64,000 nt of DNA, from contig CADEDC010000012.1 of NCBI GenBank assembly GCA_902825985.1, forward strand, positions 29,602 to 93,601. The letters are read 5' to 3'. The notes beneath the pieces were generated by a model that saw only the letters and a list, made by a program, of their open reading frames with translations, ran no database searches and was not told where the DNA came from. The DNA is from an uncultured Acidobacteriota bacterium (lineage in GTDB: Bacteria > Acidobacteriota > Vicinamibacteria > Vicinamibacterales > CAVVIG01). Positions 12,360 to 61,149 of this stretch are shown here, piece by piece; within the stretch, counting starts at the first letter, position 1; each line of letters begins with the position of its first letter. The position numbers and the translations under genes were made by a program.

Positions 12360-12395
12360 GTCGCTCCCTCCATGCTGGCGCGCGCTGCGGCGCGA

Positions 12396-13370: not shown

Positions 13371-13406
13371 GTGTTCCTCCAACCCGCCGTGATCAGACTC
13401 GATGCG

Positions 13407-14267: not shown

Positions 14268-14451
14268 GGCACCTCACGCTCGCGGCCGACGGCCGTGGCG
14301 CGCCTAGGGTAATACGGGACCACGGCGGCCGGCCGGAGAAAGTTCGAGAAATCTGGCACCCGGCGGCCGGCCGTGGCGTCGCCGGCTTGGCGCGGTCGGG
14401 CGGAACTCGCGGCCCAGCCGGACGCCGGCCCGGCCGGGGCAGGCGACGGCG

Positions 14452-45411: not shown

Positions 45412-47082
45412 TTGGCGGCACGCCGTCCATCGGGTAAGGTCCTGCTCAGCCCTTCGATGCTCGTCCCACCTGCCCCCGACGCGCCGCGTGACCTCGCCGA
45501 ACTCCGCGAGAGCGAAGAACGGCTCCGCCTCGCGTTCGCCGGCGCTCAGGAAGGCGTCTGGGACTGGAATCTCGAGACCGGCGCGGTGATCTATTCCGCC
45601 CGGTGGCGCGAGATGCTCGGCTATGACGCCGACGACGTCGAACCGCACGTCCGCGCCTGGGAACGGCTGATTCACCCCGACGACCGCGAGCCGGCCCTCG
45701 CGGCGACCAGCCGCCTCGCGCACGGCGGCGACGCCTATCGGGTGGAGTGCCGGCTGCGGCACAAGGACGGTCACTGGGTCCACGTCGTCTCGCGTGGCTA
45801 TCCGGTCCGCGACCCGGCCGATGGCCGCGTCGTCCGCATCGTCGGCACGCATCTCGACCTCAGCGAGCGCAAGCAGGCGGAGCTGGCGCTGCGTGAGAGT
45901 GAAGAGCGCCTCACGCTGGCGTTCGCCGGCGCGCAGGAGGGCGTGTGGGACTGGAATCTCGAATCCGGCGCCGTCGTCTACTCGAAGCGGTGGAAGGAGA
46001 TGCTCGGCTATGACGACGCCGAGGTCGAACCGCATGTGAGCGCCTGGGAACGGCTGCTGCATCCCGACGATCGCGCCAAGGCCGACGCGGTCAACCGGCT
46101 GGTCATGGAGGGCCATCCGTCGTATGAAGCCGAGTTCCGCCTGCGGCACAAGGACGGCCACTACGTGCATGTCCTGTCGCGCGGCCTGCCGATTCGACGC
46201 ATCCCCGAGGGACCGGTCGTCCGCATCGTCGGCACCCACTTCGACCTCACCGAACGCAAGCGCGCCGAGGATGCGCTCCGGCAGGCGCAGGAGGAGCTCG
46301 AACGCCGCGTCGACGAGCGGACCGCCGAACTGGCCCAGGTCAACACGTCGCTGAGGCAGGAGATGCGGCGGCGCGAGCGGGCGGAACGCGCCCGCACCGA
46401 CCTGCTCGGACGGCTGGTGTTCGCGCAGGAAGACGAACGGCGCCGCATTGCCCGCGAGATGCACGATCAGTTCGGCGAACATCTCACTGCCCTGGCCCGC
46501 TGCGTCGACCGACTGACGGCGCTGGCCGATGCCGACCCGCGCCTCGCCTCCGAGGTCAGGACCCTGGACCATGTCGCCCAGCGTCTCGACCGCGATGTCG
46601 AGCATCTCGTCTGGGAACTGCGCCCGACGGCGCTCGACGACCTCGGGCTGCGCGCCGCGCTCGCCAACTACGCGAAGGACTGGTCGGCGCGCGTCGGCAT
46701 CCCGGTGAAGATGCACACGTCGGGGCTGCTCGACGAGCGGCTGTCGTCCGACGTCGAAACCACGCTCTACCGCATCGCCCAGGAGGCGCTGACCAACATC
46801 GCCAAGCACTCGCGGGCGACGCACGTCGAGGTCATTCTCGAACGACGCGGGCACGCGGTGGTGCTGATCATCGAAGACAACGGCATCGGTTTCGACGCGG
46901 ACGGCGGCAGCGAGCCGCCGGACGATGGATCGCGCAGCTTCGGCCTGCTCGGCATGCAGGAGCGGGCCGCCCTCATCGGCGCCACCTTGACGATCGAATC
47001 GACGGTCGGGCAGGGCACGACGGTCCTCCTCAGGATGACCGCCGACATCCAGACGAGCCCGCAGGGCCTGGCGCATGGCTAG
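45412..47082 (+). CDS. cytoplasmic tandem-PAS sensor histidine kinase (HisKA_3 type)
   Basis: It has two ~70% identical PAS modules (LRESEERL.LAFAGAQEGVWDWNLE.GAV.YS...). The H-box is IAREMHDQFGEHLTAL. The HATPase boxes are EALTNIAKHS, DNGIGF and FGLLGMQERA. The track start is a TTG, so the true start is uncertain. Confidence 0.9.
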   Translation: MAARRPSGKVLLSPSMLVPPAPDAPRDLAELRESEERLRLAFAGAQEGVWDWNLETGAVIYSARWREMLGYDADDVEPHVRAWERLIHPDDREPALAATSRLAHGGDAYRVECRLRHKDGHWVHVVSRGYPVRDPADGRVVRIVGTHLDLSERKQAELALRESEERLTLAFAGAQEGVWDWNLESGAVVYSKRWKEMLGYDDAEVEPHVSAWERLLHPDDRAKADAVNRLVMEGHPSYEAEFRLRHKDGHYVHVLSRGLPIRRIPEGPVVRIVGTHFDLTERKRAEDALRQAQEELERRVDERTAELAQVNTSLRQEMRRRERAERARTDLLGRLVFAQEDERRRIAREMHDQFGEHLTALARCVDRLTALADADPRLASEVRTLDHVAQRLDRDVEHLVWELRPTALDDLGLRAALANYAKDWSARVGIPVKMHTSGLLDERLSSDVETTLYRIAQEALTNIAKHSRATHVEVILERRGHAVVLIIEDNGIGFDADGGSEPPDDGSRSFGLLGMQERAALIGATLTIESTVGQGTTVLLRMTADIQTSPQGLAHG

Positions 47083-47734
47083 CCACCCGACGGTACTGCG
47101 CGTGCTGCTCGCCGACGATCATCTGACCGTCCGCCATGGTCTGAAGCTGCTCGTCGACAGCCAGCCGGACATGACCGTCGTGGCCGAGGCCAGCGACGGC
47201 GACGGCGCGATGCGCCAGGCGCTTGCGCACCAGCCGGACGTCGTCGTGATGGACATCTCGATGCCAGGTACCAACGGCCTGACGGCGACCCGTGGCTTGC
47301 GGCAATCGCACCCCGCCATTGCCATCGTGACCCTGACCCGCCATAGCGACGATGCGTACCTGGAAGAACTGCTCCGCGCCGGCGCATCGGGGTACGTGCT
47401 GAAACAGAGTCCGCCCGCCGAACTGCTGCAGGCCATCCGCGCCGTGGCGGCCGGCGGGCAGTACATCGATTCGGCGCTGACCGGACGGCTGACCGCCAGC
47501 TTCCTCGAACGTGACGGCGGCCGGACGTCGAGCGGCGCTCCGAGCGATCGCGAGAACGAAGTCCTGCGGCTCATTGCCGCCGGCTACAGCAACAAGGAGA
47601 TCGCGGCGCGTCTCTCGCTGAGCGTCAAAACGGTGGAAACGCACAAGGCCAACGGCATGCGAAAGCTCGGCCTCACCGGCCGCATCGATGTCGTCCGCTA
47701 CGCGCTTCTGCAAGGGTGGCTCGGCCCGTCCTAG
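47075..47734 (+). CDS. NarL/LuxR-family response regulator
   Basis: REC domain (VLLADDH, DVVVMDISMPG) plus a LuxR HTH (SDRENEVLRLIAAGYSNKEIAARLSLSVKTVETHKANGMRKL). It overlaps the kinase gene by 8 nt. Confidence 0.95.
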   Translation: MASHPTVLRVLLADDHLTVRHGLKLLVDSQPDMTVVAEASDGDGAMRQALAHQPDVVVMDISMPGTNGLTATRGLRQSHPAIAIVTLTRHSDDAYLEELLRAGASGYVLKQSPPAELLQAIRAVAAGGQYIDSALTGRLTASFLERDGGRTSSGAPSDRENEVLRLIAAGYSNKEIAARLSLSVKTVETHKANGMRKLGLTGRIDVVRYALLQGWLGPS

Positions 47735-47876
47735 TCCCGCCTCGCCCCGGTCGCCGGACGTCCGCACAGCCCGCTCAGGGGATTCCCTGAGCCGAATGCG
47801 GCATCTTCCCGATTTCCCGTCGTGACCGGCGCGCGTACAGTTTGCTCGCTCCCTCCCTCCTGCGCGATGAGGTGTC

Positions 47877-48356
47877 GTGATGAACCAGCGGAATGGCCAT
47901 GAAGCGCTCGCACGTCCCCTGACCGGGGCGGTCACCGACCTGCCGCTTCCGATGCCCGAGCATTGGCGTCAGGCGTCGGTGGCCCAGAAGAACCTTCGGG
48001 AACTGGGTATGCCGCGGGTCAACATGCTGTTCGTCGGCGCCGACGATGCGGCGTGGCACCTGCTGTCTGGCAGTCTGGGCCTCGCGTCTCCGGTGGCCAG
48101 CTGGCGTCCCGGCGACGCGATGCACCTTCCCGAGAGCGCTGCCGTCCGCACGCTGGTCATCCGTGAAGTCGGGAGAATGACCGGGGCCGAGCAGGTTCGG
48201 CTGCTCGACTGGCTCGATCGAGCGGTCGGGCGCACCCAGGTGGTGTCGACGTCCACAGTGCCGGTGCTGCCGCTGGTCGAGGAGGGGCGGTTCATCAACA
48301 CCCTCTACTACCGGTTGAACACGGTGTGTGTGGACCTCAGCACGCCGGCGCTGTGA
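47877..48356 (+). CDS. stand-alone degenerate sigma-54-activator AAA+ remnant (no Walker A, no GAFTGA)
   Basis: 159 aa with high GC3. RTLVIREVGRMTGAEQVRLLDWL aligns to the GTLFLDEIG.M....Q..LL..L block of bacterial enhancer-binding proteins. TQVVSTSTVPVLPLVEEGRFINTLYYRLNTV aligns to the VR.IA.T...L...V..G.FR.DLYYRLNV block. The Walker A position reads MLFVGADDAAW. Confidence 0.5.
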   Translation: MMNQRNGHEALARPLTGAVTDLPLPMPEHWRQASVAQKNLRELGMPRVNMLFVGADDAAWHLLSGSLGLASPVASWRPGDAMHLPESAAVRTLVIREVGRMTGAEQVRLLDWLDRAVGRTQVVSTSTVPVLPLVEEGRFINTLYYRLNTVCVDLSTPAL

Positions 48357-48366
48357 CGCCGGCCGG

Positions 48367-49023
48367 TCAGTGCGACATCGAGGGTCCGATGGCGAAGACC
48401 TGCGTCCACCCTTCGGCCTGCGGCAGTCGAACCGGTGCGGTGGTGACCTGGGCACCACCGGCATGCCGCCAGATCGACACATGCAGCACCGTGCCGTCGA
48501 GCAGGCGTGCATGCTCCTCATCGTTCTGGTAGGGTTCCGCCGGCATCGTGGGATCGGGCTCCTGGAGGATCATCAGCCACGCCGGTGCCGCGGCGCGATC
48601 CGGCAGACCGAGATAGTTCACCGTCGGTCCGTTCCGCATCATCCGCCACGCATACTGAGCACCCCGGTTCGTCGGATCGGGAACGAACGGTTCGATGCCC
48701 AATTCCGCCAACGCCGCCACGGCGGGCCAGCTGCCGCTCACCGACCGCAGGTTCTGCGCCTCGAGCAGTGCGACCTGTAGCATCCGAAACATCTGCTGCT
48801 CAACCACGGTGTGGCCCTGGATGAGGGTCTGATACGGCAGCAGGTTGCGACCGGCCGCCGACCCCTCGTCACGCGCCGCGCGGGCCTGCGCTGCCAGGTA
48901 CAGCCCCACTGCCACCAGCAGGACCACGGCAGCCCGGATGACTGCCCGTAGCTCGGCGCGCGGTGAGAGCGCGGCGATCTCGACCTGGCGGATGCCCGGC
49001 GACGCGGCGGCGTCCGCGGTCAT
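48367..49023 (-). CDS. membrane-anchored protein of unknown function (metal-operon paralog 1)
   Basis: One TM helix, AAVVLLVAVGLYLAA. The C-terminal block PAWLMILQEPDPTMPAEPYQNDEEHARLLDGTVLHVSIWRH...AEGWTQV is shared with 51636-52307. The start overlaps the permease stop (ATGA). Confidence 0.65.
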   Translation of the reverse strand: MTADAAASPGIRQVEIAALSPRAELRAVIRAAVVLLVAVGLYLAAQARAARDEGSAAGRNLLPYQTLIQGHTVVEQQMFRMLQVALLEAQNLRSVSGSWPAVAALAELGIEPFVPDPTNRGAQYAWRMMRNGPTVNYLGLPDRAAAPAWLMILQEPDPTMPAEPYQNDEEHARLLDGTVLHVSIWRHAGGAQVTTAPVRLPQAEGWTQVFAIGPSMSH

Positions 49024-49922
49024 CCGGCGTCCGGCTGCTCGGCCCGCGATCCGCGGCGACGCGCCAGGCGGCCGATGGCGAGGGTGAGAAAGAAGATCGC
49101 GCTGGCGGCCAGCACGACCGCGCCGCCGGTCGGCACCAGAAGCCTGGTCGACACGCCGAGACCGCCGACGCCGGCCATGAACGCGACGATCACGCTCCAG
49201 ACGAAGTACTGCCGCGTGCCGCGGGCGATGTTGCGCGCCGAAGCCGCCGGCACCAGGACCAGCGCCTCCACCAGCAGCGCCCCGATGACCTTCAGGCTGA
49301 CGACGATCGACAGCGTCAGCAGAATGGCGAAGAAATACTCGAGGAACGCCGACTCGGCGCCCGCGACCGACGCCAGCGGCGGGCTGAGGCTATCGAGCAG
49401 CAGCTTGTTGTACTGTCGAACCAGCAGCACGGCGACGACGATGCCGACGGCGAGCAACAGGAGCAGATCGCCGTCGGTGACCGTCAGCAGGCTGCCGAAC
49501 AGCACCGACTCGACCTGATGGACGTTGAACTGCCGCGTCAGCAGTACGAGCAGGCACAGCCCGAGTCCGAGCGTCAGGGCGTGAAACACGCCGATGAGCG
49601 TGTCGGGCGGCAGGGTCGAGTGCCGCTTCACGTACACCATGCCGAGAGTGGTGATCAGGCAGAAGCCGAACATGCCGCCGTACGGGGCGTTCAGCGGTTC
49701 GCCGAGAAGCAGCCCGATCGCGACGCCGGTGAGCGCCGCCTGGCCGAGCGCGGCGCTGAAGAACGCCATGCGGCGGGTGACCACGAGGTGGCTGAGTCCA
49801 CCGAGAATCGGTGCCAGGACGAGGACGCACAGGAATCCGCGCACCAGGAACGGGTACTGGAAGTCCGACGGCAGCAGCCCGTTCTGCGCCAGCCCGCCGA
49901 CCCAGGCATAGAAGGCCGACAT
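49020..49922 (-). CDS. metal ABC transporter permease (ABC-3 / ZnuB-TroCD type)
   Basis: The ATG at 49922 gives MSAFYAWVGGLAQNGLLPSDFQYPFLVRGF... The protein has about 8 TM helices with the typical ABC-3 layout. Confidence 0.9.
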   Translation of the reverse strand: MSAFYAWVGGLAQNGLLPSDFQYPFLVRGFLCVLVLAPILGGLSHLVVTRRMAFFSAALGQAALTGVAIGLLLGEPLNAPYGGMFGFCLITTLGMVYVKRHSTLPPDTLIGVFHALTLGLGLCLLVLLTRQFNVHQVESVLFGSLLTVTDGDLLLLLAVGIVVAVLLVRQYNKLLLDSLSPPLASVAGAESAFLEYFFAILLTLSIVVSLKVIGALLVEALVLVPAASARNIARGTRQYFVWSVIVAFMAGVGGLGVSTRLLVPTGGAVVLAASAIFFLTLAIGRLARRRGSRAEQPDAG

Positions 49923-50704
49923 CAGTGCCCGCTCCGGCCGGCGGACCGGGCGCGCGCCATCGGCGGCCGCTCGGGACTGCCGGCACCGCCGGTCCTCGAG
50001 ACGCCGGACGGCAACAGCGCCCTCACATGGTCGAGAGCGAGCGTCTCGGTGGCCGCCCCCTGACCGATCACCGACCGGTCGAGCACGGTCACGCAATCCG
50101 CCAGCCGCCGCACCTGATCGAGATCGTGCGAGACCATCACCACGGTGGTACCGGCGGCCTTGACGTCCGCGAGTACCTGCTCGAGCCGACCGACGCCGCG
50201 TTCATCGAGTCCGGCACCTGGCTCGTCGAGAATCAGCAGTTCCGGACGGGGATCGAGCGCGTGGGCGAGCAGGACGCGCCGCAGCTCGCCGCCCGACAGC
50301 ACGGAGAGCGGCCGCGTCTCGAGACCGGCGAGGCCGACCTCGCGCAGCAGCGTCGCAATCCGCTGCCGCGTGGCGGGACGCACGCCGAAACACACCGGCA
50401 GCCGCTGGCGTGTCAGCGCCAGAAAGTCCTCGACGGTCACCGGCAGGCTGGCATCCACCGAGAACGCCTGCGGCACGAAACCGATGTTGCCGGTGCCGCG
50501 CCAATGCGCGACGATGCGCCCGGCGAAGGCGGCCTGCCCCAGCAACGCAGCCAGCAGCGTGGTCTTGCCGGCCCCGTTCGGACCGACAATGACATGGATG
50601 GTCTGCGGCTGGATCGAGAACGTCACATCCGCAAGCAGCAGTTCGCGATTGCGCCGCAACGAGACGCCGACGAACTCGATGAGCGGCGGAGCCGGCGTCG
50701 TCAT
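49922..50704 (-). CDS. metal ABC transporter ATP-binding protein
   Basis: Walker A is GPNGAGKTTL, the signature is LSGGELRRVLLA, and Walker B is LLILDEP. Confidence 0.9.
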   Translation of the reverse strand: MTTPAPPLIEFVGVSLRRNRELLLADVTFSIQPQTIHVIVGPNGAGKTTLLAALLGQAAFAGRIVAHWRGTGNIGFVPQAFSVDASLPVTVEDFLALTRQRLPVCFGVRPATRQRIATLLREVGLAGLETRPLSVLSGGELRRVLLAHALDPRPELLILDEPGAGLDERGVGRLEQVLADVKAAGTTVVMVSHDLDQVRRLADCVTVLDRSVIGQGAATETLALDHVRALLPSGVSRTGGAGSPERPPMARARSAGRSGH

Positions 50705-51591
50705 CCCTCGGTGACCAGCGCCCGGATCATCGTCTCGACGTTGGTCTGCATCTCGCGCTCGAACCGCTCCGGCGTGTACGGGCCCGAGGCAATGTGGCTG
50801 ATGATGTAGACCTTCACGCCGGCCTCGTCGCGCAGCACCTTGAGCAGCGGCTCGGGAAACGTCTCTTCCGTGAACACGATCCGGATCTTCTCGCGCTGCA
50901 GCAGCCGGACCATGTCGCGCAGCTCGGCCGCCGACGGCGTCAGACCGTGCGCCGGCTGCACGACGCCGCCGATCTCGAGGCCGAACTCCTGCAGCAGATA
51001 GCCGTAGCCGTCGTGGACCGTGACGACGCGGGTGACCTTCGCATCGGCGAGCTGGACCGCCGCCTTCGACTTGATCAGCCGCAGCCGTCGCGCATAGTCG
51101 CCGGCATTCTGCTGCAACGCCGCCGCGTCACGCGGTCGCAGGCCGGCGAGCGCCTTCTGAATCGCGTAGGTCTGCTGAATCGCGTTGGTGAACGAGATGA
51201 AGGTGTGCGAGTTGACGCTCGTGCCGTTCGCCGTGCGGATCTGCGGCGTCGCCTCGTTCGGCCGAACGATCGTGACCTTCGAGTTCCCCGACGACTTGAT
51301 CATCGGGAAGATGAAGTCGTCGTGTCCGATGCCGTTGACGATGATGACGTCGAGGTCGACCAGCTTCTTGATGTCCTCGGGGCGCGGCTGATAGTCGCCG
51401 GCGTCGATATCGCCGGGCAGCAGCGCCCGCACCTCGTAGCCCGGCAACGTGCCGATGACGTTGCGGGTCCACGAATAGTACGGGTGCAGCGTGACGCCGA
51501 TCTTCAGCGTGCCGGGGGCGGTCTGTGACGAGGCGGTGCCGGCTATCGCGAGAATGAATGCGAGGGTCGATGTCGCAATCGTCCGAATCAT
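50701..51591 (-). CDS. metal ABC transporter periplasmic substrate-binding protein (TroA/ZnuA cluster-9 type)
   Basis: The ATG at 51591 gives the signal peptide MIRTIATSTLAFILAIAGTASSQ. The blocks LKIGVTLHPYYSW, VIIVNGIGHDDF and VVTVHDGYGYLLQEFGL match this family. Confidence 0.9.
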   Translation of the reverse strand: MIRTIATSTLAFILAIAGTASSQTAPGTLKIGVTLHPYYSWTRNVIGTLPGYEVRALLPGDIDAGDYQPRPEDIKKLVDLDVIIVNGIGHDDFIFPMIKSSGNSKVTIVRPNEATPQIRTANGTSVNSHTFISFTNAIQQTYAIQKALAGLRPRDAAALQQNAGDYARRLRLIKSKAAVQLADAKVTRVVTVHDGYGYLLQEFGLEIGGVVQPAHGLTPSAAELRDMVRLLQREKIRIVFTEETFPEPLLKVLRDEAGVKVYIISHIASGPYTPERFEREMQTNVETMIRALVTEG

Positions 51592-51635
51592 GATGAACCC
51601 CTGCCTGATGGGCGGTACGGCCCGACCCCGAGATG

Positions 51636-52307
51636 TTACTTCGTGGGGCTCGGCACCGGGTCGAACGGCTGGGCCAGCGGATTGAGCGGCGCAATCAGCA
51701 CCTGGGTCCAACCGGCGGCTTCCGGCGCCGCCACGAACGCCGGATCCAGCTGTCCGCCGAAGCGATGCGTCCAGACCGACACGTGGAGGACCGTCCCGTC
51801 CGGCAGTCGATGATGTTCTTCGTCATTGGGCGCCGTGTCGGTCGGCACGCCCGGCTCCGGTTCCTTGATCGCGATGAGCCAGGCCGGCGACGCGTCGTCG
51901 CCGATCGGCCGGCCCACGTAGTGCGCGATGACGCCCTGCTGCTGCAGTTCCCAGCGGTAGGCGACCGGTGGTGCGGACGTCGCACCCGGCGTCGCCGTCG
52001 GCAGGTTGGTGAGCGCCGGGGCGTCGGGCCAGCGGCCGGTCGCCGCCCGTGTCGCTTCGGCATCCACCAGCACCTGCTTCAACGTCGTGAACATCGCCTG
52101 GTCGGCGGCAACCAGATCGCGCATCAGCACCTGGAATGGCAGCAGTGTGCCGGTGTCACTGCTGGTGGACCGCAGGCCGAAGTAGACGCCGACCAGCAGC
52201 AGGATGCCGGCGGCCAGTGCCATGACGCGGAACTTCTCCTGGCCGCCGGATCGGCCGATGGTGGAGCCGCCGGCAGCCGCCGGCCGCTGTTCGACCTGGC
52301 CGCTCAT
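51636..52307 (-). CDS. membrane-anchored protein of unknown function (metal-operon paralog 2)
   Basis: The ATG at 52307 overlaps the upstream stop (ATGA). The TM helix is VMALAAGILLLVGVYFGL. The block PAWLIAIKEPEPGVPTDTAPNDEEHHRLPDGTVLHVSVWTH...AAGWTQV is paralogous to 48367-49023. Confidence 0.65.
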   Translation of the reverse strand: MSGQVEQRPAAAGGSTIGRSGGQEKFRVMALAAGILLLVGVYFGLRSTSSDTGTLLPFQVLMRDLVAADQAMFTTLKQVLVDAEATRAATGRWPDAPALTNLPTATPGATSAPPVAYRWELQQQGVIAHYVGRPIGDDASPAWLIAIKEPEPGVPTDTAPNDEEHHRLPDGTVLHVSVWTHRFGGQLDPAFVAAPEAAGWTQVLIAPLNPLAQPFDPVPSPTK

Positions 52308-53626
52308 GTGGTGCGGCCGTCCCGCGCGCCGCCGGGCAGTCGGGTCGCCCGGGCCATCACCGTCATGAGCGCGAGAAATGCCGCCACGGCCAGGACCGGC
52401 CAGTGCGCCACCAGCAACGCCACGGCCGGCTGCTGGTCCCAGGGATTCCGCTGGCCGAGCCGACCGGCCACGTCGACCACCACATGGGCGGCCTCGTGGG
52501 CCGGCAGGGCACACAATGCCGCCGTGACGAGCCACTCCGGTGCGCGCAGCCGATACGGCAGTCGCAGCAGCGACAGCAGGATGGCCAGCAGCGCGCCGGC
52601 CGAGACCGTCACGAGCCCGGCAAATGCCGTCACCGCCAGCCCGCCGTTCGAGCCGGCCAGCGGCAGCAGTTCGTGCACCGCCGAACCGAGCAGGATGCCC
52701 GACGCGAGCCCGAAGATGGCCGCGACGATGACGCTGGACAGGCGGCCGCTGCCGATGATGTTCTGCACCGCAGCGACAATCACGGCGGCGCCGGCGACGA
52801 ACTGCGCCAGGTAGAACATGTCGTCGCTCGTCGCGGCGGTCCTCACCGCGACGAGGCCGAGCGCAACCGCATGCACGGCGGCGAACACCGCGAACGGTGC
52901 ACGTGTCGCGTCCAGCCGTCGAACCGGAACCGCCAGGCAGAGGATGAAGAGCCACAGCAGCCGCTGGTTGCCCAGCTGATCGACGCCGCGCCGCGCCAGC
53001 GTCGCGATCGCGTCACCGAGCGGCGGCTCGAAGGCGACCCGCTGCGGCGGCCCGCTGACCGCGAGGGTCCGCGGAGCACCGGACGCCGGGATGTAGGTGG
53101 CGCGCGTCTGGAAGAAATCGCCGCCAAGCCGCAGCCCGTTCAACCGCGCGGTGATCTGCGGGGCGGCGGAGGCCAGCGCGTACGCGTACTGAATGTCCAC
53201 GTACGCCTCATTCCAGTACACCGGCTGGTCGGCGGGAATGGCGGGGCCGGACAACCGCGCCGCCGCCGACTCGTAGCTGGCAAAGGACCGGTCGGTGAAC
53301 GTCGACAGGATCCAGGCCGTGCGCTCCGGCGTCAGCGGCCGTCCGCCGTCGCTGACCTCGAGACTGCGGGCCACCTCCGCCGCGACACCCTTGAGGGCGC
53401 CGTCGATCGCTGACAGGTCGAGCATCGTCGTCTGCACCGTCGGCAGGCGGGCGTCGAGCAGGATGGCGGTCGGCACCCGCACGACGACGTGCAGCCGTGC
53501 CCCGTCGACCTTGAAAAAGGCAATGACCTCGGGTGGCAACCGATGGGCGACACCAACGCGTGGCGCCAGGACGACCCAGAGAAACAGGAACCAGACAATC
53601 AACCGGCGAACGGGCACGATGGCCAC
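52304..53626 (-). CDS. HupE/UreJ-like membrane protein with a ~200-aa periplasmic N-terminal domain
   Basis: The start is a GTG. The signal peptide ...VVLAPRVGVA is followed by His, so a mature N-terminal His is predicted. The C-terminal half has 5-6 TM helices with a HupE_UreJ_2-like block FAVFAAVHAVALGLV. The family assignment is from memory. Confidence 0.55.
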   Translation of the reverse strand: MAIVPVRRLIVWFLFLWVVLAPRVGVAHRLPPEVIAFFKVDGARLHVVVRVPTAILLDARLPTVQTTMLDLSAIDGALKGVAAEVARSLEVSDGGRPLTPERTAWILSTFTDRSFASYESAAARLSGPAIPADQPVYWNEAYVDIQYAYALASAAPQITARLNGLRLGGDFFQTRATYIPASGAPRTLAVSGPPQRVAFEPPLGDAIATLARRGVDQLGNQRLLWLFILCLAVPVRRLDATRAPFAVFAAVHAVALGLVAVRTAATSDDMFYLAQFVAGAAVIVAAVQNIIGSGRLSSVIVAAIFGLASGILLGSAVHELLPLAGSNGGLAVTAFAGLVTVSAGALLAILLSLLRLPYRLRAPEWLVTAALCALPAHEAAHVVVDVAGRLGQRNPWDQQPAVALLVAHWPVLAVAAFLALMTVMARATRLPGGARDGRTT

Positions 53627-53765
53627 AGCTTACCACCCCGGCGTGCTACGATTCCGCCCCGTCCCCTGGGGCCTCGCGGACGATCGCCGTCACCGTGGCT
53701 CTCGTGTCTCGGCCGCGGGATGTCGGGCAGGCAGCTGCCCGCCGCCCGCCCGGAGTGATCGTCTC

Positions 53766-55784
53766 ATGCTGAAACACCGCCCGTCCGTTCGACGCAGCCT
53801 GCGGCCAACGCGCCGCGCGATGGTTGGACTCGCGATCACGACCGCGGTGGCCGTGGCGGTGGTCGCCGGCCCGGTCACCCTGCCGCTGCACGCGCAGCGT
53901 GCCGCCCCACCCGGGGACTGGCGCCACTACGCCGGTGACGCGGCGAGCACGAAGTATTCGCCGATCGATGGCATCGACACGAGCAACGTGGCGAAGCTGC
54001 AGATTGCCTGGCGCTGGTCGTCGCCCGACAATGCGATCGCCCGGGCCACCCCAGCGGCACGCCCCGGCTCCTATCAGGACACGCCGATCGTCGCCAATGG
54101 CGTGCTCTATACGGAGACGTCCCTCGGCCTGTTCGTGGCCATCGATCCGGCGAGCGGCAAGGAGCTGTGGCAATACGACCCGGGCAGCTGGAAGCTCGGA
54201 CGGCCGCCCAACCTCGGCTACACGCACCGCGGACTCGCCTACTGGACCGACGGCAAGATCGAACGGCTGATCAGCGGGACGCACGATGCCTACCTCCTGT
54301 CGCTCGACGCCAGGACCGGCAGGCCGGATCCGGCATTCGGCACGGCGGGGCGCGTCGACGCCGCGCAGTACGTCGCGCTGGCCGAGCGGATGAAGAACTA
54401 CGCCATCAACTCGGCACCGGTCATCGTCAGGAACGTCATCATCGTCGGTTCGAACATTCCGGACAACGCGCTCAGCAAGGAGGCGCCGCGCGGCGACATC
54501 AGTGGCTACGACGTCCGCACCGGCAAGCGCCTGTGGACGTTCCGGTCGATTCCGCAGCCCGGCGAGTTCGGCCATGACACCTGGGAGAAGGGGTCGTTCG
54601 AGTACTCGGGCAACACCAACGTCTGGTCGATGATGAGCGTCGACGAGGAGCTCGGCTACGTCTACCTGCCGTTCGGCACACCGACCAACGACTACTACGG
54701 CGGCGACCGGCCGGGCGGCAACCTCTTCGCCGAGAGCCTCGTCTGCCTCGACGTCACCACCGGCCGGCGGGTGTGGCACTTCCAGGGGGTGCACCACGGC
54801 CTGTGGGACTACGACTTCCCGGCGCCGCCGATCCTCGGCGACATCACCGTCGGCGGCAAGCGCATCAAAGCCGCGATTCAGGTCAGCAAGCAGGGCTGGG
54901 TGTACGTGTTCGATCGCAGGACCGGCTCACCGGTGTGGCCGATCGAAGAGCGGGCGGTGCCGCAGTCGACCATGGATGGCGAGACGTCGGCCAGAACGCA
55001 GCCGTTCGTCACGACGCCGCCGGCATTCGAGCAGCAGGGCTTTGGCGAACAGGACCTCATCGACTTCACGCCGGAACTGCGCGCGCATGCCGCGGAGGTG
55101 CTGAAACAGTTCGATCACGGGCCGCTGTTCACGCCGCCGACCGAACGCGGGGCCATTCAGGCGCCGGGCAACGTCGGCGGAGCGAACTGGGGTGGCGCGG
55201 CATTCGATCCGGCCACCGGCATGCTGTACGTGCCGTCGATCAACCACCCGATCGTCGTGCAACTCGTGAAGGGCGATCCGGCGCGCGGCAACGTGCGCTA
55301 TCGGCGAGGCGGCGTGCAGAACGTGCCGACGGTCGACGGCCTCCGGATCTGGAAGCCGCCGTACAGCAGCGTCACCGCGTTCGACCTGAACAAAGGGACC
55401 ATCGCGTGGCGCGTACCGCTCGGCGACGGGCCGCGCAATCATCCGCTGCTGAAGGACCTGAACCTGCCGCGCCTCGGATCGATGATGCGCGGCGCGGCGC
55501 TGGTCACCGGGTCGCTGCTGTTCGTCAACGAGATCGGCGCCGGTCTCGGGGTGGGAGAGCCGCGACCGGTCGGCGGACGGCCGCTGTCGAAGCTCGAGCC
55601 CGAGCCGCCGATGTTCCGGGCCTTCGACAAGGCCACGGGCGACCTGGTGTGGCAGACGCCGCTGCCGCTGCGGCCGGCGGCATCGCCGATGACCTACCTG
55701 CACCAGGGACGTCAGTACGTCGCGATGGCAATCGGCGGCGGCGCGGATGCCGGGATCGTCGCCTACGCACTGCCCACGCCGTAG
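53766..55784 (+). CDS. PQQ-dependent dehydrogenase (glucose/quinate/shikimate-type quinoprotein), copy 1
   Basis: The ATG at 53766 gives a signal-like N-terminus. The blocks are GDWRHYAGDAASTKYSPIDGIDTSNVAKLQIAWRW, DTWEKGSFEYSGNTNVWS, GGDRPGGNLFAESLVCLD and HHGLWDYDFPAPP. There is no vicinal Cys-Cys pair. Confidence 0.9.
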   Translation: MLKHRPSVRRSLRPTRRAMVGLAITTAVAVAVVAGPVTLPLHAQRAAPPGDWRHYAGDAASTKYSPIDGIDTSNVAKLQIAWRWSSPDNAIARATPAARPGSYQDTPIVANGVLYTETSLGLFVAIDPASGKELWQYDPGSWKLGRPPNLGYTHRGLAYWTDGKIERLISGTHDAYLLSLDARTGRPDPAFGTAGRVDAAQYVALAERMKNYAINSAPVIVRNVIIVGSNIPDNALSKEAPRGDISGYDVRTGKRLWTFRSIPQPGEFGHDTWEKGSFEYSGNTNVWSMMSVDEELGYVYLPFGTPTNDYYGGDRPGGNLFAESLVCLDVTTGRRVWHFQGVHHGLWDYDFPAPPILGDITVGGKRIKAAIQVSKQGWVYVFDRRTGSPVWPIEERAVPQSTMDGETSARTQPFVTTPPAFEQQGFGEQDLIDFTPELRAHAAEVLKQFDHGPLFTPPTERGAIQAPGNVGGANWGGAAFDPATGMLYVPSINHPIVVQLVKGDPARGNVRYRRGGVQNVPTVDGLRIWKPPYSSVTAFDLNKGTIAWRVPLGDGPRNHPLLKDLNLPRLGSMMRGAALVTGSLLFVNEIGAGLGVGEPRPVGGRPLSKLEPEPPMFRAFDKATGDLVWQTPLPLRPAASPMTYLHQGRQYVAMAIGGGADAGIVAYALPTP

Positions 55785-55999
55785 TCGGCGCGCCGGGTCA
55801 CGAATCCTGCGCGACGTCAATCAGCCGATGCGGCGGCGTCGGCTCACCCCCCGACGCAGACCTTCGGGCTCGGGCTGTCCGCGCCGCTCGCGTGGTGAGG
55901 CCGCGTCGGTGTTTCGCCTACCTGCTCACCGTGATTCCGCACCCGCGCGTCGCGTGAAACAATCGGCGGCCTTCGCTCCCCCGCTCCCAGGAGGCCTTC

Positions 56000-57607
56000 A
56001 TGATGACGCACGACAGCGAGCACGACGACTCGATCTCACGCCCGGCGATGCCCGGGCGGCTGCAGCTCATGCGCACGTCTGCCGGTGTCGCCGTGCTCCT
56101 TGCCGGCCTCGCGTGGCCGACCGCCGGGATTGGCCACGACCGCCCGGCGGACTGGCCGATGATCGGGCGGGACGTCCACAACTCCCGCGCACAGCCCGAC
56201 GAGCGGCGTCTCAATCGTCGCACCGTCTCACGATTGCGGCCGCGCTGGGAGATGACCACAGCCGGCGACGTCTCCGCGACGCCGGCGGTCGTCGACGGTG
56301 CCGTCTACTTCCCCGACTGGGGCGGCCGGTTGTACAAGGTGCACGCCGACAGTGGACAGACGGTCTGGTCGCGCACCATCACGGAGTACACCGGCGTGCC
56401 CGGCGCCATCTCGCGGACGAGCCCGGCCTACGGACGTGGCCTGCTGTTCATCGGCGACCTGAATGGCAACATGATGGGCATCGACGCGAAGACCGGCGAC
56501 CTGCGGTGGCTCACCGAACTCGACCCGAACCCCAACACGATCGTCACCGCCTCGCCGGTCCTCCTCGGCCGGACGCTGTACATCGTGACCTCTTCGGCCG
56601 GCGGCGGTGTCGCGCGCGCGACCTTCCGCGGCAGCGTCGTCGCGCTCGACGCGGCGACCGGACGGATTCTGTGGCAGACCTTCATGCTGCCCGACAACGG
56701 CGGTGTCGCCGGGGGATTCGCCGGCGGCGCGTTCGTGAACTCGCCGACGATCGACACGAAGCACGGGCTCGTCATTGCCGCGGCGGGACAGCTGTACGCG
56801 CAGCCGACGCCGGTGACCGAGTGCCTGGCCGCAGCCGCTGACCAGTGGGATGAGGCCTGTTTTCCATCCGGGGCCTTCTTCAACTCGGTGGTCGCGCTGG
56901 ATCTGCGGACCGGGGCGCCGCGCTGGTCGTTCCGCGGCGCCGGTCCCGACGCGCGACGCCTTGGCTGCGGCGACACGCCGGTCGCCTGGTGTCCGGCGTG
57001 GGAGGACAACTTCAGCACGTGGGACTTCGCCGGCGCCAGCGCGAACGTGTTCGACGTCCGGATTGCCGGTCGCCGGCGGACGGTGGTCGGCATCGGGCAG
57101 AAAAGCGGCGTCTACTGGCTGTTCGATGCGCGGCGCGGGCGGCTCCTGTGGGCCACGCTGGTGGGGCACGGCGACGACCCCGGCGGCATCCAGTGGGGCA
57201 CGGCGGTCGACGAGCGGCGCATCTACGCGGCGATCGGGCACTTCCGCAACGCCGTGCCGTACACGCTGGCGTCCGGCGAGACGACGACCGGCGGATCCTG
57301 GGCCGCCCTCGACCCGGCAACCGGGCGCATCGAATGGCAGGTTGCCGATCCGCTGCTGGCGCCCGACCTCGCCGCCCTGAGCGTCGCCAACGGCGTGCTC
57401 TACGCCGGTTCGATGGCGCCGACCGGTGACCAGATGTACGCGCTCGACGCACGTGACGGCTCGATTCTCTGGCGTTTCCCGGCCGGCGGCTCGGTCGTCG
57501 CCGGCCCGGCCATCGTCGATGGGGTCGTCTACTGGGGCTCCGGCTACGCGCGAACGGGCGGCGTCGGCAACAACAAGTTCTACGCCTTCAGTGTCGATGG
57601 ACGGTGA
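56000..57607 (+). CDS. PQQ-like beta-propeller repeat protein
   Basis: AGGAGG lies upstream of the ATG. The motifs are WPMIGRDVHNSR, ATPAVVDGAVYFPDWGGRLYKVHADSGQTVW, and repeated G..lW propeller motifs up to VVAGPAIVDGVVYWGSG. Confidence 0.8.
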   Translation: MMTHDSEHDDSISRPAMPGRLQLMRTSAGVAVLLAGLAWPTAGIGHDRPADWPMIGRDVHNSRAQPDERRLNRRTVSRLRPRWEMTTAGDVSATPAVVDGAVYFPDWGGRLYKVHADSGQTVWSRTITEYTGVPGAISRTSPAYGRGLLFIGDLNGNMMGIDAKTGDLRWLTELDPNPNTIVTASPVLLGRTLYIVTSSAGGGVARATFRGSVVALDAATGRILWQTFMLPDNGGVAGGFAGGAFVNSPTIDTKHGLVIAAAGQLYAQPTPVTECLAAAADQWDEACFPSGAFFNSVVALDLRTGAPRWSFRGAGPDARRLGCGDTPVAWCPAWEDNFSTWDFAGASANVFDVRIAGRRRTVVGIGQKSGVYWLFDARRGRLLWATLVGHGDDPGGIQWGTAVDERRIYAAIGHFRNAVPYTLASGETTTGGSWAALDPATGRIEWQVADPLLAPDLAALSVANGVLYAGSMAPTGDQMYALDARDGSILWRFPAGGSVVAGPAIVDGVVYWGSGYARTGGVGNNKFYAFSVDGR

Positions 57608-57723
57608 ACGACCGCGGCGCCGGCCGGCAGCCATCGCGCCGGCCGCGCCGTGCGCGGATCACACCGGAACGCCGTGCCGCCGGCGGCGTTTCGGTCTAAG
57701 ATTCGCCCACAGGGGAGGCGGCG

Positions 57724-59712
57724 ATGACGGGATGCAGGAGGACGCTGGCAGCTGTCGGTGTCGCGTTGGCCGTTGGCGGTACGCTCGCGAGCGCGCAGCA
57801 AGGTGCGCGCGGCGGCGAGTGGCTGCGCTACGGCGGCGACGCCGGCACGACGCGCTACGCCGCGCTCGATCAGATCAACAAGGACAACGTCGGCCGGCTG
57901 CGCGTCGCGTGGCGCCGGGCGGCCGTCGATCCGGCGATCAGCTCGCGGGTGCCGGATTTCTCCTCCTCCGGCAATTTCCGCGTCACGCCGCTGATGTTCG
58001 GCGGCGTGCTGTACGCACCGAACGGCGTCGGCCTGGTCGAGGCCTTCCACCCCGGCACCGGCCGGACGATGTGGGTCCAGGAGCCGTTTCCCGACGAGGG
58101 CGCGCAGGGCCTGCGCGGCGATAGTTCGCGCGGCGTCACCTACTGGGCGAACGGCGGTGACCGCCGGCTCTTCGTGGTGCGGGGCGAGCACCTGATCGCG
58201 CTGGACCCGGCCACCGGCAAGCCAGTGCCGGCGTTCGGCGTCGGCGGACGGGTCGCCCTGCGCCCGGGGCTCGGACCGCGCGCCAGCCGCTATGCCTGGA
58301 CCGGCGCCGCCCAGGTGTGCCAGGACGTCGTCATCGTCGGTGTCGGCATCGGTGGATCGATGTCGGACCGCGCGACGAAGCGCGAAGGCGTGCCCGGCGT
58401 CGTGCAGGCGTTCGACGCCCGCACCGGCATGCCGCGCTGGAAGTTCAGCCCGATCCCGCGGCCGGGCGAGGTCGGCGCCGACACGTGGGAGAACGATTCG
58501 TGGTCGTACGCCGGCGACGCCAACTTGTGGTCGCTGATCAGCGCCGACGAGGAGCTCGGGATCGCCTACCTGCCGATGACGTCGCCGACCAGCGACATGT
58601 ACGGCGGCCACCGCCTCGGCGACAACGTCTTCGCGAACACTCTGGTGGCGGTGAAGTGCGGCACCGGCGAACGGGTCTGGCACTACCAGATCGTGCACCA
58701 CGATCTGTTCGACTACGACCTCCCCGCAGCGCCGATCCTCGCCGACATCCGCGTCGATGGCAGGCCGATCAAGGCGGTGGTGCAGCTCACGAAGCAGGCA
58801 TTCGCCTTCGTGTTCGATCGCGTCACGGGCCGACCGGTGTGGCCCATCGAGGAGCGCCCCGTGCCGGCGTCCGACGTGCCCGGGGAGCGCGCCGCGCGCA
58901 CGCAACCGTTCCCGACCAAGCCGGCGGCATTCGACCGCCAGGGGGTGAGCGTCGACGATCTCATCGACTTCACGCCGGAGCTGCGCGCCGAGGCCGTCGC
59001 GCTGCTCAAGTATTACCGCACTGGTCCGCTGTTCACCCCGCCGTCGGTGCGCGGCACCGGTCCCGACGCGCATCGCGGCACGATTCAGCTGCCCGGCTCG
59101 GTCGGCGGAGCCGATTGGCAGAGCGGCGCGTTCGACCCGGAAACCGGCGTGCTGTACGTGCAGTCGATCACCGGCCCGTTCACCGCGGACCTGGTGAAGC
59201 CGGACGGCAAGACCGACCTCAACTACGTGTCCGGCACACGCGCGTGGACCGCCGGGCCGCGCGGGCTGCCGTTGCTGAAGCCGCCGTACGGGCGGATCAC
59301 GGCCATCGACCTCAACCGCGGCGATCACCTGTGGATGACCGCCAACGGCGATGGCCCGCGCGAGCACCCGCTGCTGAAACCGTTGAATCTGCCGCCGCTC
59401 GGCAGTCCCGGCCGGAGTTCGCCCCTCGTGACCAAGACACTGCTCTTCCTCGGCGAAGGGGATCCGGTGATGTCGTCGCTCGGCTCACGACTGCGGCCTG
59501 AGATGCCGGCGTCGCTGGCGCCGGGTGCCGGCGGCAAGCGCTTCCGGGCCCTGGACAAGGCGACGGGCGCGACCCTCTGGCAAACCGAGCTGCCGTCCGG
59601 CACGACCGGGGCACCGATGACATACATGTTCGAGGGCAAGCAGTACGTCCTCGTCGCGATCGGCAGCACCGAACCTGGCGCCGCCGGGTTCGTCGCGCTG
59701 AGCCTGCCGTGA
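57724..59712 (+). CDS. PQQ-dependent dehydrogenase, copy 2 (paralog of 53766-55784)
   Basis: GEWLRYGGDAGTTRYAALDQINKDNVGRLRVAWRR, DTWENDSWSYAGDANLWS, and HHDLFDYDLPAAPILADIRVDGRPIKAVVQLTKQAFAFVFDRVTGRPVWPIEERPVP. It is colinear with copy 1. Confidence 0.9.
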   Translation: MTGCRRTLAAVGVALAVGGTLASAQQGARGGEWLRYGGDAGTTRYAALDQINKDNVGRLRVAWRRAAVDPAISSRVPDFSSSGNFRVTPLMFGGVLYAPNGVGLVEAFHPGTGRTMWVQEPFPDEGAQGLRGDSSRGVTYWANGGDRRLFVVRGEHLIALDPATGKPVPAFGVGGRVALRPGLGPRASRYAWTGAAQVCQDVVIVGVGIGGSMSDRATKREGVPGVVQAFDARTGMPRWKFSPIPRPGEVGADTWENDSWSYAGDANLWSLISADEELGIAYLPMTSPTSDMYGGHRLGDNVFANTLVAVKCGTGERVWHYQIVHHDLFDYDLPAAPILADIRVDGRPIKAVVQLTKQAFAFVFDRVTGRPVWPIEERPVPASDVPGERAARTQPFPTKPAAFDRQGVSVDDLIDFTPELRAEAVALLKYYRTGPLFTPPSVRGTGPDAHRGTIQLPGSVGGADWQSGAFDPETGVLYVQSITGPFTADLVKPDGKTDLNYVSGTRAWTAGPRGLPLLKPPYGRITAIDLNRGDHLWMTANGDGPREHPLLKPLNLPPLGSPGRSSPLVTKTLLFLGEGDPVMSSLGSRLRPEMPASLAPGAGGKRFRALDKATGATLWQTELPSGTTGAPMTYMFEGKQYVLVAIGSTEPGAAGFVALSLP

Positions 59713-59736
59713 GTCGGCGGTCATGATCGCACGCCC

Positions 59737-61149
59737 ATGCCTCTGACGCGTTGCCTCGCGCTCGTTGGCGTCACCGTCGCGCTGGCCGTCGGCCTCACCG
59801 CGCAAGCGCAGAACCCTCGCGACCGCTACAGCCCCGGTCCTGAAGCCTTCACGACCCGCGTCGTCGCGACCGGCCTCGGAAACCCATGGGAAGTCACCTG
59901 GGGACCGGACGGTTTCCTATGGGTCACCGAGCGCACCGGCTTCCGGGTGACCCGCATCAATCCAGCCGATGGCACTTCGCACGTCGCCTTGACCGTGACC
60001 GACGTCTACCAGTCCGTGGACCAGGATGGCCTGCTCGGGCTGGCGCTGCATCCCGATCTGCTGAAGGATCGCGGGCGCGATTTCGTCTACATCGCGTATG
60101 TGTACGACGCCGACCCCGGCGCCGCTGTCGTCCGCAACCTGCGCGTCCGACGCTACACCTACGACGCCGGCCATCAGACCCTGCAGGCGCCAACGGATCT
60201 GCTCGATCGCATGCCGGCCCACGATGACCATGGCGGCGGCCGTCTCGTCTACGGCCCCGACGGGATGCTGTATCTGTCACGCGGTGACCAGGGGAGCAAC
60301 TTCCTCGCGAACTACTGCATCCCGAACCGCTCCCAGGACCTCCCCACGGCTGCCGAGGTTCAGGCGCGCGACTGGTCGACGTACCAGGGCAAGATCCTGC
60401 GGTTGGCCCTCGACGGATCGATTCCCGCCGACAACCCGACGCTCAACGGCGTCCGCAGCCACGTCTACACCTCGGGCCATCGCAACCCGCAGGGGCTGGT
60501 CTTCGCTCCGGACGGCCTTTTCTACGCGGCTGAGCACGGCCCGAGCTCGGACGATGAAGTGAACCTCATCGCAAAGGGGAAGAACTACGGCTGGCCGAAC
60601 GTGGCCGGGTTCCGCGACGATCTCGGGTACGTCTACGCGAACTGGTCAGCCTCGGCGCCGGCACCGTGCCGGTCGTTGACCTTCGACAACCTGAATCCGC
60701 CCCCGACGGTGCCGCGCGCGCTGGAATCGGCATGGCAGCATCCGGATTTCGTCGCACCGCTGGTCACCTTCTTCACCGTTCCGGCGGATTACGACTTCGC
60801 GCGGCTGCGGACGGCGACGATCGCGCCGTCCGGCATCGATCTCTACACGGCGACGGCGATTCCCGGATGGAACCGGTCGCTCCTCCTGACCGGCATGCGT
60901 TCGGGGGCACTGTATCGCGTCAAGCTGGCGCCGGACGGCCGCGCCGTCGCCGGCCAGCCGCTGTCGTACTTCAAGACGACGAACCGCTATCGCGATATCG
61001 CCATCAGCCCGGACGGCCGCCGCATCTTCGTCAGCACGGACGACCACGGGGTCACGCAGGACGCCCAGGCGCAACGCACGGCCAGACTTGCGAATCCTGG
61101 TGCGATTCTGGAATTCACCTACGTTCCGCCCGCCGCCGGGGGGCGCTGA
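59737..61149 (+). CDS. PQQ-dependent soluble sugar (glucose/sorbosone) dehydrogenase family protein
   Basis: A signal peptide, then GLGNPWEVTWGPDGFLWVTERTG, GHRNPQGLVFAPDG and NLIAKGKNYGWPNVAG. Confidence 0.9.
   Translation: MPLTRCLALVGVTVALAVGLTAQAQNPRDRYSPGPEAFTTRVVATGLGNPWEVTWGPDGFLWVTERTGFRVTRINPADGTSHVALTVTDVYQSVDQDGLLGLALHPDLLKDRGRDFVYIAYVYDADPGAAVVRNLRVRRYTYDAGHQTLQAPTDLLDRMPAHDDHGGGRLVYGPDGMLYLSRGDQGSNFLANYCIPNRSQDLPTAAEVQARDWSTYQGKILRLALDGSIPADNPTLNGVRSHVYTSGHRNPQGLVFAPDGLFYAAEHGPSSDDEVNLIAKGKNYGWPNVAGFRDDLGYVYANWSASAPAPCRSLTFDNLNPPPTVPRALESAWQHPDFVAPLVTFFTVPADYDFARLRTATIAPSGIDLYTATAIPGWNRSLLLTGMRSGALYRVKLAPDGRAVAGQPLSYFKTTNRYRDIAISPDGRRIFVSTDDHGVTQDAQAQRTARLANPGAILEFTYVPPAAGGR

Follow-up and report, generated by a model that had tools for sequence, protein, structure and literature searches.

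We analysed a stretch of 64,000 nucleotides from an uncultured bacterium of the Acidobacteriota (order Vicinamibacterales; contig CADEDC010000012.1), referred to here as the window, and focus on an operon of six genes at 48367-53626 on its minus strand. In the order of transcription, gene 1 encodes an anglerase-like membrane protein of the HupE/UreJ-2 type (52304-53626; 440 amino acids, aa), gene 2 an FpvK-family (DUF6162) protein termed paralog 2 (51636-52307; 223 aa; PF19659), gene 3 an FpvC-type periplasmic metal-binding protein (50701-51591; 296 aa from an internal ATG), gene 4 an FpvD-type ATP-binding cassette (ABC) ATPase (49922-50704; 260 aa; PF00005), gene 5 an FpvE-type ABC-3 permease (49020-49922; 300 aa; PF00950) and gene 6 a second FpvK-family protein, paralog 1 (48367-49023; 218 aa; PF19659). 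Judged by homology, the four central genes are an fpvKCDE module.

The six genes and their four overlapping junctions are present as the original prediction had them. The overlap is ATGA at 52304-52307, 50701-50704 and 49020-49023, and TGATG at 49920-49924; the minus-strand letters read CATGAG at 52304-52307, GGATGACG at 50701-50704, GGATGACC at 49020-49023 and CTGATGTC at 49920-49924. A spacer of 44 nt separates the stop codon of paralog 2 from the ATG of the binding protein (51591). The overlaps had been taken as an argument for fixed stoichiometry, which they do not demonstrate because the same 4-bp overlaps of stop and start codons occur at nearly every junction of proteobacterial fpv-like operons; they are ordinary translational coupling. 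The G+C content of the operon region, 66-72%, is similar to that of the surroundings, and the nearest relatives of the operon belong to the Acidobacteriota throughout and to the Vicinamibacterales for the most part.

The Pfam matches of the three transporter genes (ZnuA family, PF01297, E 8e-42, for the binding protein; ABC_tran for the ATPase; ABC-3, E 3e-51, for the permease) bear out the earlier view of a metal-uptake operon with a cluster A-I binding protein and an ABC-3 importer. The further designation as TroA/ZnuA-type holds at the level of these families, but not for the closest type. In a search of the PDB the binding protein matches FpvC (6RU4, 6R3Z) at E 2e-63, with AdcA as the runner-up at 2e-16 and the ZnuA, TroA, PsaA and MntC types weaker still. 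Identities to the Pseudomonas aeruginosa proteins are 39.5% for FpvC, 41.7% for FpvD (E 8e-56) and 44.2% for FpvE (E 3e-63). These similarities mark the ABC genes as FpvCDE-type, not ZnuABC- or TroABC-type.

The candidate metal site of the binding protein departs from that of FpvC at one position. PDB entry 6R6K differs from wild-type FpvC (6R3Z) by six His-to-Gly changes, and we take the six altered residues to be the hexahistidine metal site reportedly described in FpvC by Vigouroux et al. (FEBS J, 2020). Five of these six His are kept in the window protein (H90, H129, H193, H215 and H266), and the position of the remaining one, the first His, is occupied by Gly65 in the motif IDAGDY. The I-D-A-G-D residues are invariant and the His-to-Gly change is found in all acidobacterial orthologs; all six His are kept in the orthologs of Pseudomonas, Cereibacter, Azospirillum, Vibrio and a metagenomic contig (L049). 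One of the two Asp residues flanking this Gly in IDAGD probably replaces the lost His ligand. FpvF and its orthologs (7089-8006 in the P. aeruginosa locus L048, 8479-9438 in L050 and 8500-9363 in L051), which are recorded as PF01297 or zinc-binding proteins, carry none of the six ligand His of FpvC.

The two paralogs had been described as unrecognised proteins; a Pfam search places both in DUF6162 (PF19659), with 33.3 bits for paralog 2 and 32.9 bits for paralog 1 against a cutoff of 27, a match that takes in the transmembrane (TM) helix and extends halfway into the soluble domain. Their FpvK identity was reached through the binding protein, whose closest solved relative is FpvC: a sequence search with FpvC returned a mis-called 472-aa P. 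aeruginosa protein carrying both PF19659 and PF01297. The gene order at the P. aeruginosa locus is FpvG (403 aa, PepSY_TM), FpvH (179 aa, PF27732), FpvJ (109 aa), a DUF6162 protein, FpvC, FpvD, FpvE and FpvF, and the 186-aa PF19659 protein directly upstream of fpvC is FpvK (PA2406). A profile of the acidobacterial proteins aligns with P. aeruginosa FpvK over 130 columns (hhalign, probability 82%, E 1e-5), the identity between a window paralog and FpvK is about 29%, and tblastn with the DUF6162 proteins of Azospirillum, Cereibacter and Pseudomonas finds the acidobacterial genes at E values down to 5e-10. A C-terminal AGW(T/R)QV motif is common to the acidobacterial paralogs and the proteobacterial FpvK-family proteins. 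Both paralogs are thus assigned by homology to the FpvK (DUF6162) family.

That the two are paralogous, with one TM segment each, is confirmed by 39% identity over 189 residues (E 1e-38) and by a single hydrophobic segment at residues 27-45 in each. The AlphaFold2 (AF2) model of paralog 2 shows a helix at 21-47 followed by an alpha/beta domain (mean predicted local distance difference test, pLDDT, 81), which suggests single-pass membrane proteins with a domain that, in the orientation we infer, is extracytoplasmic. Paralog 2 adjoins the binding-protein gene on its upstream side and paralog 1 sits downstream of the permease gene. FpvH, FpvJ and FpvK are required for optimal kinetics of pyoverdine-iron dissociation, the one phenotype reported for FpvK (PMC6954188). 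A literature search on DUF6162 found no paper, one on FpvK function found nothing after 2020, and among the distant DUF6162 representatives none bears an informative name. ZrgD and ZrgE were considered as homologs of the paralogs and ruled out, since they belong to DUF2607 and DUF3299.

Between two conserved strands, the acidobacterial FpvK-like proteins have about 30 extra residues. The proteobacterial proteins share the flanking sequence, but in the alignment FpvK of Pseudomonas and the DUF6162-family proteins of Cereibacter, Azospirillum and Vibrio lack this insertion. It reads EPEPGVPTDTAPNDEEHHRLPDGTVLHVS in paralog 2 (aa 149-177; 51777-51863, minus strand) and lies at aa 155-183 of paralog 1 (48475-48561, minus strand). 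Its pattern is E-P-x-P…D-E-x-H-H-R-L…H-V-S-x-W, and the residues E149, P150, P152, D162, E163, H165, H166, R167, L168, G171, L174, H175 and W179 (paralog 2 numbering) are conserved in at least 90% of 59 full-length sequences, 42 of the paralog 1 (p1) type and 17 of the paralog 2 (p2) type. The original prediction had singled out a C-terminal block and a GWTQV motif in the two window proteins; both are conserved far beyond chance in these 59 homologous sequences, and its expectation of conserved acidic and His residues holds within the acidobacterial clade at the same level of at least 90%. In the AF2 model the insertion forms a loop and then a beta-hairpin (pLDDT 85-96). Conservation of E149, D162, E163, H165, H166 and H175 across both ancient paralog clades is typical of what a ligand site would show.

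A variant of the insertion, DAEHIRLQDGRLYHYSLW, is found in the DUF6162 protein of the metagenomic contig L049 (3348-6639). Ahead of the DUF6162 gene lie, with their stop and start codons adjoining, the gene of an 883-aa protein and a PfkB kinase gene, of a kind reported as a frequent neighbour of Ang-1 genes; the binding protein with all six His is encoded downstream. The 883-aa protein was considered as a relative of gene 1 and set aside: it has no Pfam match and is unrelated to gene 1.

A scan of one genome per species yielded 47 loci, nearly all from Acidobacteriota; in 46 of them the binding-protein, ATPase and permease genes directly follow a DUF6162 gene, so that the linkage of the paralogs to metal transporters, proposed earlier as a co-occurrence check, is upheld. 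The six-gene arrangement of the window recurs in 17 other genomes (type A; L001-L014 and L016-L018, counting L008, whose gene 1 is present but carries a frameshift in the assembly). About 28 loci are of type B, with four genes, those for DUF6162, binding protein, ATPase and permease; six of these loci have a HupE-like gene on the opposite strand at a distance of 5-7 kb. In a neighbour-joining tree the upstream copy of type A (p2) forms one clade, and the downstream copy of type A (p1) together with the single copy of type B forms its sister clade. The p1 and p2 subtrees show mirrored topologies, which indicates by phylogeny that the FpvK duplication is old and that both copies have been retained. 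The p2 copy is found exactly where the HupE-like gene is adjacent, and proteobacterial DUF6162 queries (tblastn) matched the paralog 1/type B branch best. A profile search of 1.84 billion representative proteins returned merely 273 members of the acidobacterial type.

In P. aeruginosa the fpvGHJKCDEF genes (PA2403-PA2410) serve the periplasmic release of iron from pyoverdine: after reduction by FpvG, the iron is taken up as Fe(II) by FpvC and imported through FpvDE (PMC6954188). The replicons of Cereibacter, Azospirillum and Vibrio likewise hold genes for a PepSY-TM protein, small proteins, DUF6162, a binding protein, ATPase, permease and a second binding protein; the PepSY reductase is present in all four proteobacterial examples fetched and TonB-dependent receptors in three. 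The loci of our scan are different: FpvG, three other PepSY proteins, FpvH, FpvJ and a TonB receptor, used as tblastn queries, had no hit within 8 kb at any of the 47 or anywhere in the 64-kb window, and FpvF matched only weakly, always on the FpvC-type gene. No siderophore genes were seen among the window open reading frames (ORFs) scanned. The core and its accessories are co-inherited in Acidobacteriota without a nearby PepSY reductase, FpvH, FpvJ, FpvF or TonB receptor. Compared with the P. aeruginosa system, the window operon shares the order FpvK, FpvC, FpvD, FpvE, the 4-bp overlaps, and, in its FpvK-like proteins, one N-terminal TM helix and the C-terminal AGW(T/R)QV motif. It differs in lacking FpvG, FpvH, FpvJ, FpvF, a TonB receptor and siderophore genes, in the duplication of DUF6162 with its Asp/Glu/His-rich insertion of about 30 residues, in the five rather than six ligand His of the binding protein and in its acidobacterial host; moreover, an anglerase-like HupE/UreJ-2 gene heads the operon, and the place after the permease, held in P. 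aeruginosa by the siderophore-binding protein FpvF, is taken by DUF6162 paralog 1.

In most type B loci, among L021-L047, the DUF6162 gene is immediately preceded by a same-strand gene for a Pyr_redox_3 flavoprotein (E 2e-75; for example 6641-7975 in L026). This neighbour could be a linked cytoplasmic reductase, or could reflect mere synteny of closely related genomes.

Gene 1 had been called HupE/UreJ-like, with a periplasmic domain and an N-terminal His, and this description stands. Its product comprises a predicted signal peptide (aa 1-27, ending in GVA, with a cleavage site predicted by eye), His28, a beta-sandwich at about 33-198 and membrane helices at 203-427; the AF2 model (pLDDT 85) reproduces this layout, with a signal helix, the beta-sandwich at 33-198 and the helices at 203-427. 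The periplasmic N-terminal domain, delimited by AF2 strands and Foldseek, spans aa 28-200 (53027-53545, minus strand) and begins with His28. We found 24 homologs and read conservation in 22, all of which carry His28 (22/22); H377 and H381, in a PAHEAxH motif of a late membrane helix one helical turn apart, are invariant as well. PF13795 (HupE_UreJ_2) is barely reached, on residues 221-354 (24.6 bits against a cutoff of 24.5), and 5 of the 22 clade members reach it at E <= 0.01. A bridging homolog, P0416, shows 29% identity to gene 1 (E 5e-27) and matches PF13795 at E 3e-44. No PepSY match of Pfam was found on gene 1, and the idea of an FpvG homolog, suggested by similar size and operon position, was rejected, FpvG being a PepSY_TM protein with no similarity.

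Foldseek gave as the top match of gene 1 the Cu-bound Ang-1 domain of a HupE/UreJ-2 protein (9GCE; E 4.9e-5, probability 1.0, target-normalised TM-score 0.45), followed by the zinc-binding ZrgA and PA4063 (target-normalised TM-scores 0.56-0.70); at the sequence level gene 1 matched no PDB chain, 9GCE included. Proteins of the anglerase architecture described in 2025 (Nat Commun) have a signal peptide, then His1 (100% conserved), then a beta-sandwich in the periplasm and lastly a PF13795 permease. On its own, the Ang-1 domain binds Cu2+ as well as Ni2+ (dissociation constant 220 nM for Ni2+) by way of a mono-histidine brace, and it is proposed to "fish" metal for the permease (PMC12537917). Sequence and model together assign to gene 1 the same predicted architecture: a signal peptide, an N-terminal His, a beta-sandwich of about 170-190 residues and a membrane domain that may be of the PF13795, HupE/UreJ-2 type. 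Gene 1 differs from Ang-1 and 9GCE in having no detectable sequence similarity, a TM-score of 0.45, a PF13795 match barely at threshold and replaced membrane His. It also adjoins ABC importer genes, unlike the reported Ang-1 neighbourhoods, which contain DUF4198, indigoidine-A-like and PfkB genes and do not include ABC importers; Ang-1 is found chiefly in Pseudomonadota and Ang-2 in Actinomycetota (PMC12537917).

In L008 the HupE/UreJ-2 gene (6723-7950), split by the assembly frameshift, keeps the canonical DHLLF motif, and its product seemingly has no N-terminal His, with DAAPAEQ following the signal peptide. Two HupE-like/DUF6162 fusions, P0226 and P0020, are likely frameshift artefacts with Arg-rich junk segments and support adjacency at most.

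We see about an even chance that the operon serves to bring a divalent transition metal from the periplasm into the cytoplasm, with an importer that is built on the fpvKCDE core and works by capture, relay and import. The N-terminal-His domain of gene 1 would capture free divalent metal in the periplasm, and the membrane-tethered FpvK-like domains would relay it through the insertion residues E149, D162, E163, H165, H166 and H175. The binding protein would then take the metal at its site of five His and a probable Asp and dock on the ABC importer. All four-gene loci have the paralog 1 copy, which would make it the generic partner of the importer; the strict co-occurrence of paralog 2 with the HupE/UreJ-2 protein would make paralog 2 the adaptor for that protein. 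Our best guess for the substrate is Fe(II), as no characterised homolog is closer than FpvC; Ni, Co or Mn may be carried instead, in view of the Ang-1 data and the history of the HupE/UreJ family. The substrates listed earlier, Ni, Co, Zn and Mn, omit Fe(II), the proposed physiological substrate of FpvC.

Several observations weigh against this capture-relay-import picture. The identity of the metal is read from homology alone, the insertion could serve structure alone, and Foldseek found no solved structural relative of the paralog model at E <= 0.001. In P. aeruginosa, FpvK was negative in two-hybrid assays with FpvG, FpvH, FpvJ, FpvC, FpvF and FpvDE, and the loss of its expression had a mild effect (PMC6954188). 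The canonical membrane His of PF13795 (DH and HGFGF, present in P0416) are replaced in the gene 1 clade. Finally, consensus sequences for Fur, Zur, NikR, Nur, Mur, MntR, DtxR and sigma-54 gave nothing better than shuffled sequence in 53600-53800, in agreement with the earlier inspection by eye, which had seen no Zur, Nur or NikR box in the promoter gap.

The mildness of the FpvK phenotype in Pseudomonas and the lack of detected interactions would also suit two independent, co-transcribed routes, a HupE/UreJ-2 secondary permease that has a capture domain of its own and an FpvCDE-type importer, with the DUF6162 proteins handling no metal but acting as assembly, stability or gating subunits and the insertion as a structural element or protein interface. 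The published anglerase-HupE/UreJ-2 model is a self-contained capture-and-permease unit (PMC12537917), and the four proteobacterial FpvK-family proteins without the insertion hold the same place upstream of fpvC. We nevertheless find two separate routes rather unlikely. The co-occurrence of paralog 2 with the HupE/UreJ-2 gene is strict (both are present in 17 other loci and the window, and type B has neither side by side), and this argues for a functional link rather than mere co-transcription; the insertion residues listed above look like a ligand site in their conservation of at least 90% across both ancient clades, and the canonical PF13795 membrane His are lost in gene 1. Homology of the core genes to fpvKCDE, in turn, raises the question of whether the operon works as fpvGHJKCDEF does, by reductive release of iron from a siderophore or metallophore and import of Fe(II), with gene 1 in place of FpvG, FpvH and FpvJ. 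The constant company of a PepSY reductase in the proteobacterial modules (4/4), the TonB receptors in three of the four, and the Pyr_redox_3 gene directly before most four-gene acidobacterial loci would fit such a system. We judge it improbable, given that no homologs of PepSY, FpvH, FpvJ, FpvF and the TonB receptor were found within 8 kb at the 47 loci or in the window, that the window ORFs scanned include no siderophore genes, and that gene 1 is unlike FpvG, its two invariant membrane His one turn apart not being a bis-heme pattern; the Pyr_redox_3 protein has no membrane or periplasmic domain match, and its linkage may reflect genome kinship.

A Zur-type zinc importer resembling ZnuABC or AztABCD, in which the extra proteins would be zinc chaperones like AztD, ZinT or ZrgA, is to our minds just as doubtful as the reductive system. 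The window operon and these cluster A-I importers share PF01297, ABC-3 and ATPase components and the concept of an accessory periplasmic protein that feeds the binding protein. The best NCBIfam matches are AztC, AztA, AztB and ZnuB, and ZrgA and PA4063, to which the N-domain of gene 1 is similar in structure, bind zinc. All of the NCBIfam matches nevertheless fall far under the equivalog cutoff (AztC 107 against 350, ZnuA 53 against 268, AztA 152 against 220, ZnuB 132 against 284), and the E-value of the binding protein against FpvC is better by about 47 orders of magnitude than against any zinc-binding protein in the PDB. Five conserved His at the positions of the reported hexahistidine site of FpvC are ill-suited to a zinc site of three His and one carboxylate, and no Zur box was found in the promoter gap. 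The operon further differs from ZnuABC and AztABCD in having no homolog of the beta-propeller AztD or of ZinT, in accessories that are membrane-anchored DUF6162 proteins and in its ligand set. With ZrgABCDE of Vibrio and PA4063-PA4066 of Pseudomonas it shares the plan of a metal ABC operon with extra small single-TM and periplasmic proteins, as well as a likeness between the ZrgA/PA4063 fold and the N-domain of gene 1; ZrgD, ZrgE and ZrgA, however, belong to other families (DUF2607, DUF3299 and DUF2796), and none is homologous in sequence to the operon proteins.

The families themselves were already known, the paralogs being FpvK/DUF6162 proteins and gene 1 a probable member of the anglerase-HupE/UreJ-2 type described in 2025. 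New are the fpvKCDE module without reductase machinery in Acidobacteriota and the old FpvK duplication tied to the HupE/UreJ-2 gene, together with two features read from the alignments, the conserved Asp/Glu/His insertion and the putative five-His site of the binding protein. FpvK has been a named gene of the pyoverdine pathway since 2017, its role is still to be explained and no partner has been detected. The comparison of gene neighbourhoods points to the ABC importer, not the siderophore-reduction step, as the likely partner of FpvK, because FpvK accompanies FpvCDE across phyla even in the absence of the reductase, FpvH, FpvJ, FpvF and the outer-membrane receptor. This idea is a testable hypothesis for FpvK function in Pseudomonas. 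More speculatively, and with doubts that outweigh our confidence, FpvK-family proteins in general may be membrane-tethered periplasmic metal relays and a conserved fourth subunit of FpvCDE-type importers, the acidobacterial duplicate coupling an anglerase-HupE/UreJ-2 capture protein to the importer independently of siderophores. If true, the relay reading would explain the role of FpvK in pyoverdine-iron uptake. The insertion, the His-to-Gly ligand change and the paralog that tracks the HupE/UreJ-2 anglerase offer three natural experiments, and the last of these, the co-occurrence of paralog and anglerase, is the first operon-level link of the anglerase architecture to an ABC importer. Vicinamibacterales are abundant, poorly studied soil bacteria, and their abundance in soil makes their acquisition of trace metals relevant to soil ecology.

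Upstream of gene 1 lies a divergent intergenic region of 139 bp (53627-53765), shared with a pyrroloquinoline quinone (PQQ) dehydrogenase gene. Consensus promoter and terminator scans of this gap gave nothing informative. Its sole palindrome with arms of at least 6 bp is the inverted repeat CGGGCAG-GCAG-CTGCCCG at 53724-53741, with 7-bp arms, whose conservation in L001 is not obvious. Immediately next to the annotated GTG start of gene 1 is a conserved block, GGGGTGGTAAGCTGTGGCCATC (53617-53660 in the window; about 6600-6650 in L001), and a related block, GGTGGTAATCT, is found in the upstream regions of L002 and L005. The block resembles a TG-extended -10 element, TAAGCT, and sits right at the start codon, which suggests that translation of gene 1 may in truth begin at the second GTG (53617), perhaps from a leaderless mRNA; in several gene 1 homologs the start corresponds to residue 4. 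In L006, L011, L012, L014, L016 and L018 the gene upstream of the HupE-like gene ends with a receiver-domain-like part followed by a Fis-type helix-turn-helix. Its resemblance to RegA/ActR-type response regulators hints at two-component rather than Fur/Zur-type control at these loci.

Divergent from the operon, four successive PQQ-type dehydrogenase genes occupy 53766-61149 on the plus strand: full PQQ beta-propeller enzymes at 53766-55784 and 57724-59712, a shorter PQQ_2 propeller at 56000-57607 and a GSDH-family enzyme at 59737-61149. PQQ1-like genes adjoin the operon in the window, L001 and L007 and are absent beside the other loci. A lanthanide or calcium link through these neighbours was considered and not adopted, as the adjacency is confined to these three and the ABC ATPase misses the PQQ-system ATPase model (81 bits against 302). 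Elsewhere in the window, an ORF of 1503 aa at 9801-14312 (plus strand) has no Pfam match at E <= 1e-5. On the other side of the operon, plus-strand genes at 45412-48356 converge on its end across a gap of 10 bp: a PAS histidine kinase (45412-47082), a LuxR-type response regulator (47075-47734) and an ORF of 159 aa (47877-48356) that holds merely a partial sigma-54 interaction domain. A counterpart of the 159-aa ORF with 71% identity lies directly after paralog 1 in L001.

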